A stretch of 64,000 nucleotides of DNA from Octopus vulgaris (Eukaryota), in assembly GCA_951406725.2 (NCBI GenBank), contig OX597822.1, positions 22,134,001 through 22,198,000 on the forward strand, given 5' to 3'. A model generated the notes under the pieces. The model was given only the letters and a program-made list of their open reading frames with translations. It did not search any database and was not told the DNA's origin. Within the stretch, counting starts at the first letter, position 1. Every line of letters begins with the position of its first letter. A program made the position numbers and the translations under genes. This document shows, one piece after another, positions 1,951-27,790 of the stretch.

Positions 1951-3123
1951 ATATCATCTGCCAACACAATTTTTTGCATATGGTCAAATGTAAGTTGCAT
2001 TATCAAAAGCATCAAGAAAAGAAAATATAAAAATATTAACCGAGATAAATGAAAAGGATTCCATTTGCTGACAGATGTGTCTGCAAAAAAATTCTACAGT
2101 GATGTGAGACATTCATTACTCTTTATTAATTGAAATGTATTTAAGTTACTTTTTAATTGCTTGGAAAGGGACACTAGAAACACTTAAGATGTCTATAAGT
2201 GAATATAATGAAACAACAATATAGCAAAACTCAATTTGACACATTGGTAAATGTAATTCATGAATTCCCTCCAGAGCATCTATTTTCAAATTCACTCAAG
2301 TGAAGATTCATGAACATTTTCCCTTGACAGTCTCATCTCTTTTCCAGTTTGCCTTGTCTTTTTTAAATATATCTTGGATCATTTTACTGATTACAGAATA
2401 AACTATAACAGAGTTTTTGTTCAATTCATGAGCATATTGTCAATTTACTCTACAATTTATGTATTATATCTATATGTATATATAATATCAATATGCGCAA
2501 CACATATGCCAGCAGAAAACTGCCCAGAGGGCGGTTTTTCGGAAATTAACTCCAATCTTTGTTAATTTGGTTGTTGACTTTGAAAGGATAAAAGATAAGT
2601 CATGATATTTATAAGATTTGAACTTAGGGCGTAAAAGGATCTATATAAGTATGTGATCACCAGTGATTTTGAATATGAGTCGTCAATTATTCAATCAACT
2701 GAACTGCATGCTTTTGAATTAGTATACTCTCCTTTTCCTAGGTCTTCAACGTCTAATGAAGTCGTAAGTTTGCCATTGTAACATAAGGGTTAATAAGATA
2801 ATATATCAGTCAAGAACTGAACTTGATGGTATCAGCTGGGTCACTCCCTTCAAATTGGCTGGTTTTGGGACAAAAACTAGGAATGATGATGATCATCATC
2901 ATCATTATCATCATTACTATTATTATTTTCATTATTATTATTTCTATACCTATGTGAGAATTAGACATATGGTCAGCAGTTTTGAGTGGAACTGGGGGAC
3001 TGTTACCATTGCCCTCAGTACTTCACTGATGCTTTATTTTATCAACCCCATGAAGGACAAAGCTGACTTCAGCAGGAATTGAACTCAGTATGAAAAGTGT
3101 CAACAAAAACAAAACAGTAATAA

Positions 3124-6423: not shown

Positions 6424-6459
<36 letters not shown>

Positions 6460-6460
<1 letters not shown>

Positions 6461-7150
6461 CCCCCGTTTGTTTGTCCAATTTTAAACCCTGCACGACTTC
6501 TATACACACTGTCTTTTACTACCCGCCATTGCTTCTTCACCAAACTTTTTGGCGCCCTCCGATTCTTTCCCTCTCTTCCTCCCATCCTCCTCCCCTCTTC
6601 CTCCCATCCTCCTTAATCCCTTCTTTCTCCTTTTCTCTTGGTCACTGATTCTGTCCCCTGCCTTCCACCCTCTTTGATTCCCTCTCTCTCTGTCTCTCTT
6701 TCTCTCTCTCCTGCGACCTGCTGCTTCTTAAACCATTCTGTTGGCCTTCGTATCTCGACCAACATGTGTCCCCGCTACCGAAACGGTAATTATTTCTACG
6801 CCAGCTATGTTGTTGTTGTGTTTTTGTCTCATTTGGTCTAAAGTCGTATGACAACCACCGTTATATATATTTTGTTTATTCATTACTGTTTTCAATTTCA
6901 TTTTCGTCTCTTGTATTCACATCCGTCTTGTGCGTTCACATTCCTGTCTTCTACCAAGAAATCTAATGCTTACAGCTTAGTTTTTTTCTTGGGGCTGGCC
7001 GAGTTGGAGCAAATATCAGAATTGAACAGCCGAAATTTGCTATGATGATTCGGTGTCTGACTGAAGATTGAAGGCTTCGAATGATTTGTCTGTGTTCCGT
7101 GTTCGTCCCTTCCTGTATTTCACGTTCATTATATATAAAAACATTCATTT
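6460..7150 (+). mobile_element. Non-coding element between TA tracts carrying permuted hammerhead copy 1
   Basis: Bounded by TA repeats, CpG-richer than flanks, pyrimidine-rich 5' part, 3' part homologous to 23330-23435. Confidence 0.5.
6993..7067 (+). ncRNA. Predicted non-circularly permuted hammerhead ribozyme with kink-turn, copy 1
   Basis: GGCUG/CAGCC (stem II); GCAAAU-A/GAA-AUUUGC (stem III, AUA site); UCAGA/UCUGA-CUGAAGA (stem I plus core); k-turn UAU-GAU/G-GA; helix CCGAGUU/GAUUCGG. Confidence 0.7.
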
Positions 7151-7194
7151 ATATATATATATATATATATATAGATAGATAGATAGATAGATAA

Positions 7195-22394: not shown

Positions 22395-23030
22395 TATGCC
22401 AGTGCTGCCTGACTTGCTCCCATGCCGGGGGGGGGGGCACATAAAAAGCACTATTCGAATATGGTCAATGCCATTGCTGGCTGACTGGTCCCGTGCTAGT
22501 GGCACATAAAAAGCACCATTTTGAGCATGGTCATTGCCAGTGCTGCCTGCTTGGCTCCTGAGCTGGTAGCACGTAAAAAGCACCAATCAAGTGTGGTCGA
22601 TGCCAGTACTGCCTGACTGGCCCTTATGCTGGTGGCACATAAAATGTACTGACTACACTCTTGGTGTTAGGAAGGGCATCCAGCTGTAGAAACTTTGCCA
22701 GATCAGACTGGAGCCTGGTGCAGGCTACTGGCTTGCCAGCCTCAGTCAAACCGTCCAACCCATGCCAGCATGAAAAGCAGACGTTAAACGACAACGATGA
22801 TGATGATGATGATGATTATATACCATCATCATCATCATCTTTCAATATCTCTTCACCTATGCAGGCATGAGTTGGATAGTTTGACAGGAGCTGGTCAGCT
22901 GAAGAGTTGCCTATGCTCCAGTTGTCTGTTTTAGCATGGCTTCTATGGCTAGATGCCCTTCCTAATGCCAACCACTTTACAGAGTGTGCTGGCTGCTTTT
23001 ATGTGGCATTGGCATGACTGTTTTATGACA
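22395..23030. mobile_element. Two tail-to-tail RTE 3' UTR repeats
   Basis: Plus copy ending (GAT)n at ~22815; minus copy starting (CAT)n at ~22825. Confidence 0.75.
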
Positions 23031-23203: not shown

Positions 23204-23208
<5 letters not shown>

Positions 23209-23512
23209 AGAGAACAAGATGTACGTTACGCCGCAGTAATGTATGTATAAAAAATATATATAAAAATACAAATTGGGACAAGAACGCAAAACACTCAAAT
23301 AGACGACACAAAAAACGGACAGGTCATTCAGTTTTTCCTTAGGGCTGGCAGGATCGGAGCAATCTCAAGATTAATCAGCCGAAATTGCGAGGATGATCCG
23401 GTTCTTGACTGAAGATTAGAGGCTTTGAATGACCCGTCCGTTTTTTGTGTTGTCTATTTGAGTGTTTTGTGTTCTTGTCCCAATTTGTATTTTTATATAT
23501 ATTTTTTATACA
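23204..23512. mobile_element. Fold-back element with ~87-bp inverted arms enclosing permuted hammerhead copy 2
   Basis: 23243-23329 is the reverse complement of 23426-23512 with few mismatches; (TA)n on both sides; extra ~40-bp tail on the left. Confidence 0.75.
23343..23415 (+). ncRNA. Predicted non-circularly permuted hammerhead ribozyme with kink-turn, copy 2
   Basis: GGCUG/CAGCC; GCAAU-C/GAA-AUUGC (AUC site); UCAAGA/UCUUGA-CUGAAGA; k-turn GAG-GAU/G-GA; GGAUC/GAUCC. Compensatory indels and substitutions relative to copy 1. Confidence 0.72.
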
Positions 23513-25076
23513 TATATATATATATATATGAACATAATGCTTCCTAGTAGGCTATTCCTGTTTCATTTACTTCAAAATTTATGTGAGGCAAATCATGATT
23601 ATGCACATGTGTGTGTTTATGGTAAGTTACACTTTTGATATGAAGAGTCGTTATTTATTATTGGGGTGATCTGTCATATGACAGGTAAATAGGAAGTGAA
23701 TTTCATGAACAGGATAAAAATGTGATATGAATTAAGTGAGTATTAGTACTATTGAAAGATAAAGAGTAGTAGCTGGAGTCTATACAAAGTGAATGAGGAA
23801 CAAGATAATAATCGCCTCAAATGAAATAGAAAGAGTACTTAACTGCCAATGTAATTGAATTAAGGTAGAATCTTGAGTTCAAGAAAAGGTGAGGGAAAAG
23901 AATGTAAATGAAATGAATAAGTGCAGGCAGAAGAAGTTCATCATGATTCAGCTTAAAATATGGAACTGCTAAATTGAGAATGACTGTAAAATTTAATAAA
24001 TTTATCATGTGCATATAAAACTGAGAATCAATAAGATGATGTACATATTCATTCTTAAAACATTTTGTTGTTGAATTTTGCCTTCAAACAAACTTTTTCG
24101 TTTCAGACAATGTGTGTTGACAATGTACATGATTCGTTGACACAAGAGGACTTTGAGACACCAGTGTTTCAACCTGGTTGTGTCACTTCAGTCAAAGATA
24201 CCCATAGATCAATAAATTTAAACAAGAAAGGTGGTTCTTGTTTTGTTTTTTGTTTTTTCTTTTTTTTTTTTGCAAATGCTAAACTGATAATAAATAATTT
24301 TGTACTCATAAAACAGCAAGAATCAAAATTATGTACATATTCAGTCTTAATATATTCTGGCAAATTGGAAAGTGAATATGTTAATTTGTGTTGTATTTTG
24401 CACTCAGAGAAAATCTTCTCATTTCAGATGCTGTGTCTTCACAGTACACTGAATTCATTGACATAAAAGGACCTGGAGACACCAGTTCATTGACTTGACT
24501 GTGTTTCTTCAGTCAAAGCTATTCAATACTATAATAGAAATTCAAGATATTTTAATTTTACTTTGGTTGAATCAGTTTCTTGTTAGTCTGAGCTTTTAGC
24601 TGTGTGTTCACAGGAACATAAATTCATACTTCCCCTCAACTTTTGCCTCCCGGTTGATAGAGATGGTGGTCTCTGTTTACAATCCACCATGAAAGTATGT
24701 CCAGGCTCCTTGACATGGGGAAGGGAATCCAGCTACAGAAAGCTTTAGTCGAAAGTTTTATCTGATCCACACAAGCATGGAAAAATAGACATAAATATCA
24801 TGATGATAATGATGATTACATATATATGAAAATGTACATGAATATGTGAGTGTGCGTATGTATACACTACTTGAATACCTATATACATAATATATATATC
24901 TTTGGGTATGTGTGTATGTATATACAACTTGAATACATATATGTATAATATATATATATATGTATAGGTGTGCATGTATGTATATATAAAGAATTCTAAT
25001 TTTGGACATGCTGGTATGTGCATGAAGCATAAATTTTGATAATTCTTGTTTTGTACACCAAGTATCTATCTATCTA

Positions 25077-25386: not shown

Positions 25387-25482
25387 ATAAAATGGTAAGA
25401 TAACAAAAGAAAGAAAGAGACCTCAATATTATGTAAATAGAGGAAATTTATCTATACAATATGTTACATTACTCGGTAGTCA

Positions 25483-25545
25483 AGATAAAACTCTGAGTTT
25501 CAGATGCCGAAGTGGAAATCCACAACACCATCTCTTCGGTTATCT
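25483..25545 (-). ncRNA. Hammerhead-like motif, mirror copy in the 3' pLTR (sense to the PLE ORF)
   Basis: Reverse complement of 27463-27525. Confidence 0.65.
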
Positions 25546-25741
25546 GGCTATTTGAAAACGTTATGAAAAAATACCGTTAAAAATGAAGGGAAATTACTCT
25601 GTTATAACTCTGCTTTGCCTGCGTACTTATACATCGCTCGCATTTTTCGTCATAAAAATTATATAAAAATACATAAAAAAATATATAAAAATATATAAAA
25701 ATATATAAAATCTTCTTGGGACATAACACAGAAAGCATGTT

Positions 25742-26975
25742 CTATCCGTTTTCTTTAGGGGACCAAAAACGTAACAGAAATTTAGTCACATGTGGGCATG
25801 ATCCGAAAAGTTCTGTCCTTGTATTTAGACATGTGGTAGGGTCTAAGCTGCTTTTCCAGATAAGCCATCTCTCCATGTCGCATAAACCGCACCTTCCGCT
25901 GCCGTTAGTATAGGGCTTACATCTGGCCAAAATCTTCCATTGTATGTTATAATCGACACCTTTATCTCTTAAAGACCAAATATGATTGGATAATTGTGTC
26001 GCTTTTCTTTTGTTCCAGTGCCTAAAGCTCAAAGTGTGGTTATTGAACCTGGCCTTGAAATTACCCTCTGTCAGGCCCACGTATTTCTTCGTCAAAACGG
26101 TGTCTTTAGTGGTTATAGAGTTTACGGTAGCCTCATATATGATGGTCTTGGACATGCAAGCTCCATTTAGCGGGCACAATTCTTTATTCCTGCATGAACA
26201 GCTGTTTTCTTCTTGTGTTTTTTGTATGTTATGATTGATTATGTTTTTAAAATTGGTAGTTGAACTAAAACTAATTTTTAAATTGTGTCTATTGAAGAGT
26301 TTCCTATAAGCATGGTTAACTGGAAAATGTCTATCTATCAGTGCTAGGAAATATTTACCTATATTGAAGGCCACCTCGGGTGAGTAAGGGGCGTAAACCA
26401 GATGACCTTCCTATTTCTATTATTCCTTTTCCTTATTGTTGGGCTGGTGATAGGTGTATATTTTATTTTTTCGCTAAAACCACTATCTTTTAAAGCTTTA
26501 TTATAAACTGGGGCAACGCTATTGAAGATGTCCTCATTAGATGAGAGGCTAGAAATCCTCTTACTAATATTTTTAACTAAATTTTTGAATACTATAGGGG
26601 GATGGCATGAACCTACATTAATATAACTTAGTCTATCATTGGGCTTCCTATAAGGCTTATAAATATTATTATTAAGATCTAAGGAAACGTCTAAGAAATT
26701 GACAACCGTCAGGTTAGTGTCTATAGTTATACTAAGTCCGAAGTGTTTCATTAACTGGATAATATCCTTCCTAAAACGATCTTGTGCTGGTCCATTTGTA
26801 TTAGCTGTTAAGGCGAGGGCATCATCTTTGTAGATGGCGAAATGTACGTTAGGGAATGTCTTACTGAAGGTATCTAGGAGAAAGAGTCCAATTAGATCAC
26901 AGATGCCTGCCCCATCATATGAACCCATGCTCACATCGAAAGCGCCCTCCGTGTCGGTGTTTTTTACCCACTTTG
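25742..26975 (-). pseudogene. PLE reverse transcriptase / GIY-YIG ORF, truncated and frameshifted
   Basis: ORFs 26359-26934 and 25742-26374 join by a frameshift near the WFTPP motif (~26390); the N-terminal RT half is missing. Confidence 0.88.
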
Positions 26976-27462
26976 CAGAGCTTTAGGCACTGGAACAAAA
27001 GAAAAGCGACACAATTATCCAATCATATTTGGTCTTTAAGAGATAAAGGTGTCGATTATAACATACAATGGAAGATTTTGGCCAGATGTAAGCCCTATAC
27101 TAACGGCAGCGGAAGGTGCGGTTTATGCGACATGGAGAGATGGCTTATCTGGAAAAGCAGCTTAGACCCTACCACATGTCTAAATACAAGGACAGAACTT
27201 TTCGGATCATGCCCACATGTGACTAAATTTCTGTTACGTTTTTGGTCCCCTAAAGAAAACGGATAGAACATGCTTTCTGTGTTATGTCCCAAGAAGATTT
27301 TATATATTTTTATATATTTTTATATATTTTTTTATGTATTTTTATATAATTTTTATGACGAAAAATGCGAGCGATGTATAAGTACGCAGGCAAAGCAGAG
27401 TTATAACAGAGTAATTTCCCTTCATTTTTAACGGTATTTTTTCATAACGTTTTCAAATAGCC

Positions 27463-27525
27463 AGATAACCGAAGAGATGGTGTTGTGGATTTCCACTTCG
27501 GCATCTGAAACTCAGAGTTTTATCT
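27463..27525 (+). ncRNA. Hammerhead-like motif (CCGAAGA core variant) in the inverted pLTR
   Basis: AGAUAA-CCGAAGA-GAUG...CAUC-U-GAAAC-UCAGA-GUU-UUAUCU; U4 replaced by C and one extra U before GAAA. Confidence 0.65.
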
Positions 27526-27790
27526 TGACTACCGAGTAATGTAACATATTGTATAGATATATATATATATATATATATATCTAATTAGATAAATGAACTA
27601 TCTTATTACGGATAATTCGAAAGATAACCGATACCTGGGTAGCAAACTCACAACAGAAAGAGCACGGTTGAAGTTACGACCATAGGGCATAAACTCCGTG
27701 CCTTAGTGCGGAAATTTGAAGTTTAATTTAATATAATAAGTATAGGAAAGAATGGAGCTGAACGAAGATTTAGCAAAATTCCTTTATTTT

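Follow-up and report, generated by a model that had tools for sequence, protein, structure and literature searches.

Can a hammerhead ribozyme have its strands arranged in an order that no circular permutation gives and, if so, what would such a ribozyme be doing in an animal genome? The question is raised by positions 23337 to 23428 of a 64,000-nucleotide stretch of Octopus vulgaris DNA (assembly GCA_951406725.2, contig OX597822.1, positions 22,134,001 to 22,198,000, forward strand), which we call the window, where an original prediction made without database searches had described every piece of a hammerhead core in a rearranged order, together with a kink-turn (k-turn). Our analysis indicates, with a high degree of confidence, that this motif is a self-cleaving hammerhead at the 3' end (the pseudo-long terminal repeat, or pseudo-LTR) of a non-autonomous Penelope-like element, and that the ribozyme is of the type carried by Naiad elements. 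What is observed is the strand order, the covariation of four helices, the anatomy of the element, the occurrence of the same order behind relics of Naiad reverse transcriptase (RT) and a pile-up of insertion 5' ends. We judge it very likely that the motif is a real fold that would cleave in intact family members; that the window copy itself could cleave, if transcribed, is a more guarded prediction, which we regard as somewhat probable.

Strand order of the motif

Every strand named in the prediction was found at its position on the forward strand, and sequence and pairing agree that the hammerhead core is complete in the window copy (C3-U4-G5-A6-N7-G8-A9 and G12-A13-A14-A15.1; Table 1). The order is non-circular, as predicted: the stem II strand that would ordinarily follow A9 lies 5' of the cleavage site and has no direct covalent link to A9, the chain is thus opened between A9 and G10.1, and stem I is joined to stem II by a linker of 5 nucleotides (nt). 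We refer to this arrangement as the split order. The outer helix that joins the far ends of stems I and II is upheld by covariation, though what had been given as GGAUC is 7 bp in the family and contains an A23350.G23400 mismatch in the window copy. Closure of the opening by the flanks CCUUAG/UUAGAGG was correct in kind and not in register, a better fit being obtained between 23330-36 and 23418-24; this helix, named P0 here, has 77-79% of its cells paired over 27 copies, with a variable register.

Cleavage is predicted 3' of C23364. The pair U16.1-A15.1 is present in 27/27 and 14/14 rows of the two alignments described below, the H of the NUH triplet is C in 23 rows and A in 2 (two misaligned rows also read A by eye), and N7 of the CUGAnGA core is A, G or U according to family.

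Table 1. Coordinates of the ribozyme parts and of the elements that carry them
Position	Strand	Feature	Basis or remark
23206..23330	-	Inverted, 5'-truncated copy of the element 3' end	With a tail of ~33 nt (23206-23238)
23330..23336	+	P0 closing helix, 5' strand	7 pairs with 23418-24, 3 of them G-U
23343..23348	+	Stem II 5' strand (10.1-10.5), upstream of the cleavage site	Pairs with 23375-80; GGCUG 23343-47 with CAGCC 23376-80 forms stem II
23349..23355	+	Outer helix (stem I-II contact), 5' strand	Pairing and covariation
23356..23358	+	k-turn non-bulged strand GGA (3n, 2n, 1n)	Family alignment
23359..23363	+	Stem III 5' strand, last base U16.1	GCAAU pairs with AUUGC 23384-88
23364..23364	+	C17 of the AUC site, with cleavage predicted on its 3' side	Analogy with the core; truncated copies begin here
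23365..23370	+	Stem I 5' strand (1.1-1.6), UCAAGA	Pairs with UCUUGA 23403-08
23371..23380	+	Linker UUAAU and stem II 3' strand CAGCC	Sequence
23381..23388	+	Core GAAA (23381-84) and stem III 3' strand	Invariant in both alignments, core invariance being partly imposed by the search patterns
23389..23394	+	k-turn bulged strand: GAG bulge 23389-91, G1b and A2b 23392-93, U3b 23394	Opposite GGA 23356-58
23395..23408	+	3' strands of the outer helix and of stem I, with one U between them	Pairing and covariation
23409..23415	+	Core CUGAAGA (C3-A9)	Sequence
23418..23424	+	P0 3' strand; GGCU within it is a possible alternative stem II partner	Pairing
23425..23512	+	Element 3' end, then (TA)n target	Common to family A loci
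6460..7156	+	Second element, family B, one unit of ~700 nt	Ribozyme ~6980-7076, site 3' of A7015

The strand arrangement is not due to chance. A structure descriptor for the split order found two matches in the window, the motif and a second copy at ~6992-7067, and none in 60/60 dinucleotide shuffles; a sequence pattern likewise gave 2 window matches and 0 in 100 shuffles. The motif has none of the circular type I, II or III orders and fits no Rfam hammerhead model, the window giving no Rfam match at gathering scores and the surroundings of the motif no hammerhead up to E 10. Pseudoknot-free folding also misses the structure (z 0.67), as is to be expected because helices II, III and I and the outer helix cross.

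Covariation of four helices

Assigning the upstream GGCUG to stem II is borne out by diverged families, since these carry compensatory changes in stem I, stem II and stem III as well as in the outer helix. We aligned, by sequence only, 27 hand-picked copies and a second group of 14, drawn from 49 clusters, with several cluster members among the rows. Rows were left out where the 5' side had been lost to microsatellites or other insertions, where copies had decayed badly (L156, L170 and L178) or where matches appeared fortuitous, and the diverged families were sampled by fixed patterns that are biased towards the k-turn strand. In the 27-copy alignment 81.9% of cells are paired and 21/32 pairs show two-sided change, against at most 50.5% paired in controls with slid partners; the corresponding values for the second group are 83.3%, 15/31 pairs and at most 49.8%. 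The covariation that the prediction had called for is present in both alignments. Within the 27 copies, two-sided change occurs at 5/6 pairs of stem II, at all 7 tested columns of stem I (the seventh of which seldom pairs) and at 5/7 pairs of the outer helix, 85% of whose cells are paired. One diverged family, for example, combines a GAAGG/CCUUC stem II with a CUGUCC/GGACAG stem I, and another has GCGUC/GACGC.

The element and its copies

Collecting genomic copies, a check proposed with the prediction, showed that the motif belongs to a dispersed repeat present thousands of times in the genome. Searches of the assembly (2.8 Gb, 227 contigs) with three families returned at least 1840, 1394 and 1880 first-look candidates, counts that are lower bounds and overlap between families, and 40 candidates of each were scored. 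Scored copies of the window copy's family are 95-100% identical, those of family B are identical over 108 nt in 40/40 cases, and those of the third family have 89-93% identity to their query. A pattern for the CUGAUGA variant had 1247 genome matches and another pattern had 45 more diverged ones from several families, with 0 in the reversed control of either. No matches were returned by a pattern scan of viral contigs, and 14 pattern matches in metagenome contigs were set aside, as none form the helices by eye; three of those contigs (L093, L098 and L104) carry an identical match that does not form the split-order fold.

The repeat units are 690-850 nt long and non-coding, with no open reading frame (ORF) in the units examined, and occur singly, in tandem or inverted. 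Tandem spacing is 852 nt in L024 and 706 in L137, where family B forms a trimer, and L138 has five units of 720-727. At the window locus the motif sits exactly between 92-nt inverted arms (23239-23330 and 23426-23517) that are 96% complementary, and (TA)n flanks the insertion on both sides. In reverse complement, the left arm repeats the 3' terminus of the element itself, followed by a tail of ~33 nt, which adjoins the 3' end in other copies as well (e.g. L005). Because it combines an inverted 5'-truncated copy, a tail and (TA)n, the element bears the insertion marks of Penelope-like elements (PMC8557442; this and the other papers cited by accession or preprint identifier are drawn on from excerpts). 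Across the copies we found 5' truncation, partial tandems, an inverted 5' copy, a tail of 30-40 bp and a (TA)n target, none of them specific to Naiads. Reading the arms as those of a DNA transposon (a miniature inverted-repeat transposable element) was rejected, as other copies have the 3' arm only and the inverted arm bears the tail.

Locus L172 (~2999-3020) resembles window position 23330 in that the inverted arm stops where the ribozyme begins on its 5' side or slightly within it, so that in both copies a long hairpin has the ribozyme as its loop. Just upstream of the motif, at 22436-22644, lies a degenerate 66-nt tandem repeat of 3.2 copies.

Four sequencing runs were placed on family B as contigs only, and three of them, whose RNA origin is a guess, span the head-to-tail joint; in runs X2 and X12, likewise guessed to be RNA, one contig (712 or 662 letters long) spans the whole family B unit together with its joint at window 6440-7160. 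Because the joint also occurs in genomic arrays, neither circles nor cleavage nor expression can be read from these contigs.

Insertion 5' ends at the predicted bond

Reverse transcription of RNA cleaved at the predicted site should give insertions that begin at base 1.1 or just 3' of it. Exact matches in which (TA)n is joined directly to base 1.1 number 102 genome-wide, against 10 for the join that keeps C17, despite the greater microhomology of the latter. Counted by eye among the matches listed for families A, C and D, 27 distinct loci divide into 4 whose 5' ends lie upstream (-9 to -14), 5 at the site and 18 downstream; in the same kind of count among those listed for family B, 23 distinct loci divide into 2, 6 and 15, with at-site positions ambiguous by -3 to +1. 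Thus 6/50 distinct loci among the matches listed extend upstream of the bond, over a searched range of ~-19 to +11, and a step at the predicted bond appears in the searches of both sets of families.

We interpret this pile-up as a probable genomic trace of cleavage, which supports the placement of the site 3' of 23364. A stop caused by RNA structure at the same bond is unlikely because the enzyme would by then have displaced all 3' partner strands. Most copies extend past the predicted site, suggesting that uncut multimers or circles also served as templates, by analogy with retrozymes (PMC7229834).

Relation to Naiads and the mobilising enzyme

Naiads are described as Penelope-like elements without a canonical hammerhead, eight of which, including Naiad_Ovul and Naiad_Esco, are labelled 'HHR_half_core', and as sharing the insertion marks listed above, namely (TA)n, partial tandems, an inverted 5'-truncated copy and a 30-40 bp tail (Craig et al. 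2021, PMC8557442). We read the 54 published consensi (File S5) by eye rather than by computation, via four CUGAnGA words, so that words broken at line ends were missed and CUGACGA matches come from part of the file. On this reading at least 10/54 consensi end in the split order: Obim, Ovul, Esco, Amil, Aacu, Anas, Movir-2, Plae, one Clytia element and one in the Darwinula part, with a poor stem II in Naiad_Esco and near-identical Amil and Anas consensi. Several of them have a clean helix directly after A9 and a hairpin before G10.1. At least 6/54 have the published non-circular type CSG, comprising Nbra-1, -2, -3 and Hcon, named from the headers next to them, and two others assigned to Pristionchus and Ascaris by their place in the file. 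The CSG hammerheads that end the Nippostrongylus and Haemonchus Naiads are clean by eye, two CSG examples having been published before. The 3' end of Naiad_Bfor, from a ctenophore, possibly has the split order, with a 15-bp outer helix and a stem I of 2-3 bp, and was not counted.

In the octopus genome, the Naiad_Obim and Naiad_Ovul consensi match loci L151 and L174, and L151/L183 is a relic with RT remnants that ends in the motif. Among 20 Naiad RT relics fetched (of 50 matches), 8 are followed on the coding strand by the motif, at a distance of 1.0-2.8 kb, and two relic frames match RVT_1 weakly, below the Pfam cut-off. All 8 of these motifs are old, mutated and of the Ovul type. It is therefore only a related ribozyme family that follows Naiad RT relics, and units of the window's family contain no ORF with an N-terminal GIY-YIG domain and a C-terminal RT. 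As an intact partner was not found, the link of the window's family to Naiads rests on its shared ribozyme build and insertion pattern, and we lean only slightly towards a Naiad enzyme having moved it.

Another Penelope-like enzyme, such as that of a young element with a C-terminal endonuclease, could instead have mobilised a ribozyme derived from a Naiad ancestor, an explanation that we treat as a serious if tentative one. Family B is very young, whereas the Naiads found here are decayed, as cephalopod Naiads also are according to PMC8557442, and a family with frames of up to 782 aa that also ends in (TA)n is present in the genome. That young family, however, has no split-order ribozyme, and a divergent Naiad could have been missed with 150/2038 candidates scored. 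The explanation concerns mobilisation only and is compatible with a Naiad-type self-cleaving ribozyme.

The young family in question (L224-L230) is near-intact, with an RT bearing a C-terminal GIY-YIG domain and an upstream frame of ~340-380 aa; its terminal repeat has CUGAAGA beside a possible helix, and no full hammerhead can be read there. As a carrier of the ribozyme it was rejected, the motif in L226 being a separate insertion between TA repeats. A search for a coding partner among the other loci gave two with endonuclease matches, both of them separate neighbouring elements.

The kink-turn and its replacements

The window's family satisfies the standard k-turn consensus (a 3-nt bulge, then G.A and A.G, between two flanking stems). 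On the non-bulged strand A occupies 1n in 25/25 and G occupies 2n in 24/25 aligned rows; GAU on the bulged strand was forced by the pattern for 21/27 rows, the opposite GA never, and the bulge letters differ between families. We think it quite probable that a k-turn is formed in this family. It is nevertheless replaceable and not a defining feature of the ribozyme, as the prediction would have had it: its place is taken by a GAA/GUA internal loop in a second group of families from this genome, and by plain bulges in coral, jellyfish and acanthocephalan Naiads. The GAA/GUA-loop group is large and has a longer stem III (L017, L039-L044, L143, L145, L158, L175-L177 and L180). Another split-order family without a k-turn occurs at L180:3639-3748 (+), where a hairpin fills the A9/G10.1 gap as in the coral and jellyfish forms.

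The prediction had further suggested that L7Ae-family proteins (Snu13/15.5K) might control cleavage. In the stronger form of this idea the ribozyme is real and depends on protein, Snu13/15.5K or a protein of the element having to bind the k-turn before the RNA can cleave. Box C/D k-turns fold only with L7Ae (PMC5689011), and a U at 3n, giving a box C/D-like U.U pair, occurs in 8/27 rows and in Naiad_Ovul. In the window copy, however, the 3b.3n pair is U.G, and k-turns with G at 3n fold in metal ions alone (PMC4382518), so this copy should fold without L7Ae; many families, moreover, have no k-turn at all. Protein control is thus possible and not required, and we regard both a need of the k-turn for L7Ae and a protein-dependent ribozyme as improbable.

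Alternative pairings and weight of the evidence

A further alternative keeps stem II downstream of the core, making the motif a plain hammerhead of the published type SGC with a 5-nt insertion after A9; stem II would then be AGCC paired with the downstream GGCU, and the 5' GGCUG a flank or part of a switch. In the window copy AGCC 23377-80 can indeed pair with GGCU 23421-24, these 4 pairs can also form in families A and B and in part of D, and two of the four columns pair in 25/27 rows, one of them with 7 two-sided changes. Yet the pair adjoining the core (G10.1-C11.1) finds its partner upstream in 23/27 rows and downstream in 11/26, and a stem II partner of at least 4 bp is available upstream in 74/87 parsed copies and downstream in 38/87, the upstream search range being the wider. 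The downstream partner (GGCU) is lacking in family C and likewise in the second group and in the coral, jellyfish and acanthocephalan Naiads, and the upstream strand changes jointly with its partner across families. We consider this alternative very improbable.

Least probable of all is a conserved structure that does not cleave (a protein-binding or priming signal) or a chance resemblance, with the 5'-end step due to a transcription start or nuclease: there is no Rfam match and cleavage is predicted from sequence, yet the core is conserved at every base, N7 and H17 vary in the manner of hammerheads, the step falls at the predicted bond in two families and shuffles give 0 matches.

Several observations weigh against a cleaving, Naiad-derived ribozyme and temper our confidence in it. 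The truncation test covers (TA)n-flanked junctions only, and a transcription start or a nuclease acting at the same base may produce the same step. The copies aligned are related, and their rows were chosen and aligned by the analyst, so the covariation counts are not independent events; shuffles reached the pair count of the second group in 40/500 cases, and two Naiad rows of the 27-copy alignment are misaligned. Support is weaker for stem III and the seventh stem I pair, changes in P0 are mostly one-sided, the closing position of the k-turn is unpaired in 8/25 rows and two downstream stem II columns pair well. The window copy has its outer-helix mismatch, lacks the upstream part of the element and is enclosed as the loop of a 92-bp inverted repeat, which may hinder folding. 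Finally, 0/8 RT-linked motifs belong to the window's family, and no intact Naiad frame was found among 150 scored of 2038 candidates.

A model for the split-order hammerhead

We hypothesize that stems I, II and III build an ordinary hammerhead core around CUGAnGA and GAAA, with the 5-nt linker and the outer helix keeping stems I and II together. Stem III would be bent back to the outer helix by the k-turn or, in other families, by a bulge or internal loop, and the weak P0, with an extra hairpin in some lineages, would close the gap between A9 and G10.1. The RNA would be cut 3' of C23364 and tandem transcripts thereby cut to unit length; linear products would give cDNAs that end at the cut, and uncut multimers or circles would give longer and tandem insertions.

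More generally, it appears likely that non-circular hammerheads are the standard ribozyme of the Naiad clade and its derivatives, that two or more orders of them exist, and that their cleavage takes place in vivo and determines where the 5' ends of new insertions lie. Nematodes would then have CSG, whereas cephalopods, cnidarians, an acanthocephalan and probably an ostracod would have a seventh order, with a core that tolerates a helix or multi-way junction at A9/G10.1 and, in octopus, a bend supplied by a k-turn. If so, the CUGAnGA block can be interrupted, contrary to the published rule, one order is added to the six proposed, and non-circular permutations shift from environmental RNAs to animal genomes with thousands of copies. 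It would also explain why Naiads seemed free of hammerheads, a lack once read as a sign that Penelope-like elements can do without one, and the pile-up of insertion ends at the scissile bond would be rare evidence of a ribozyme acting on RNA that is being copied.

A neighbouring Penelope-like element

Elsewhere in the window, a 5'-truncated Penelope-like element with perfect 585-nt inverted arms occupies 25446-27562 on the minus strand; an RT end, a cysteine linker and a GIY-YIG-like frame are discernible by eye, and a Pfam scan of its two frames returned no family. One 585-nt arm contains a type I-like hammerhead (~27464-27524) with a variant core, CCGAAGA, and a palindromic stem III, in which CUUCGG could pair with the core.

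Comparison with known systems

According to Eckert et al. (2023; PMC10085705), the hammerhead consists of three unbreakable blocks that allow six possible orders. Five SGC and two CSG ribozymes cleave in vitro; 583 SGC examples come from metatranscriptomes only and 2 CSG from metagenomes, with none reported in the excerpts from genomes of known organisms. What brings stem III to the I-II contact helix is left open there, and the kink described here is offered as an answer. The octopus motif shares with SGC and CSG the pseudoknotted path from a stem I strand through a few-base linker to a stem II strand, as well as the helix that joins the other strands of stems I and II. Unlike them, it has block C split, the stem II strand that would be expected to follow A9 lying 5' of the cleavage site (and of block S, so that the order S-G-C with an unbroken C is absent), and both strands of the junction between stem III and the outer helix are continuous, as k-turn, bulge or loop. 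When checked against the published permuted hammerheads, the motif matches none of the six orders: it is the SGC path, closed by way of GGA where SGC has its two ends and cut open instead at A9/G10.1. SGC, CSG and the split form are one closed path, opened at the non-bulged strand, at the bulged strand and at A9/G10.1, respectively.

With standard k-turns of the Kt-7 type (PMC4382518) the motif has in common the 3-nt bulge, the G.A and A.G pairs and the canonical and non-canonical stems; it differs in that the kink geometry is predicted by a sequence rule, within a hammerhead motif. We found no publication on a natural k-turn inside a hammerhead in the open-licence literature at the level of listings. 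A search of open-licence literature, outside which most subscription papers fall, likewise gave no description of the split order or of a Naiad hammerhead, and the excerpts of PMC13725137 and PMC10162972 contain none.

The element itself has the (TA)n, partial tandems, inverted 5'-truncated copy and 30-40 bp tail in common with Naiads (PMC8557442), and a ribozyme of the split order likewise stands at the 3' end of the octopus Naiad consensi; the window element differs in having no ORF. Non-coding tandem units with one hammerhead each, here of 690-850 nt, are likewise the hallmark of non-LTR retrozymes (PMC7229834), and animal retrozymes of this kind are thought to derive from Penelope-like elements (PMC7229834; preprint 10.64898/2026.07.22.740005, Li et al. 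2026). Retrozymes, however, carry type I hammerheads, which the window's family replaces by a permuted order, and they were found with type I descriptors that are blind to the split order (PMC7229834; 10.64898/2026.07.22.740005). The type I or minimal hammerheads in the pseudo-LTRs of canonical Penelope-like elements (PMC4209133) occupy the same position in the element and probably do the same job; they differ in their circular order, weak stem III and action as dimers, whereas the split-order motif has a full stem III and should act as a monomer. Because its chemistry and core are those of the known ribozyme, the split-order form is a variant of the hammerhead and not a new class.
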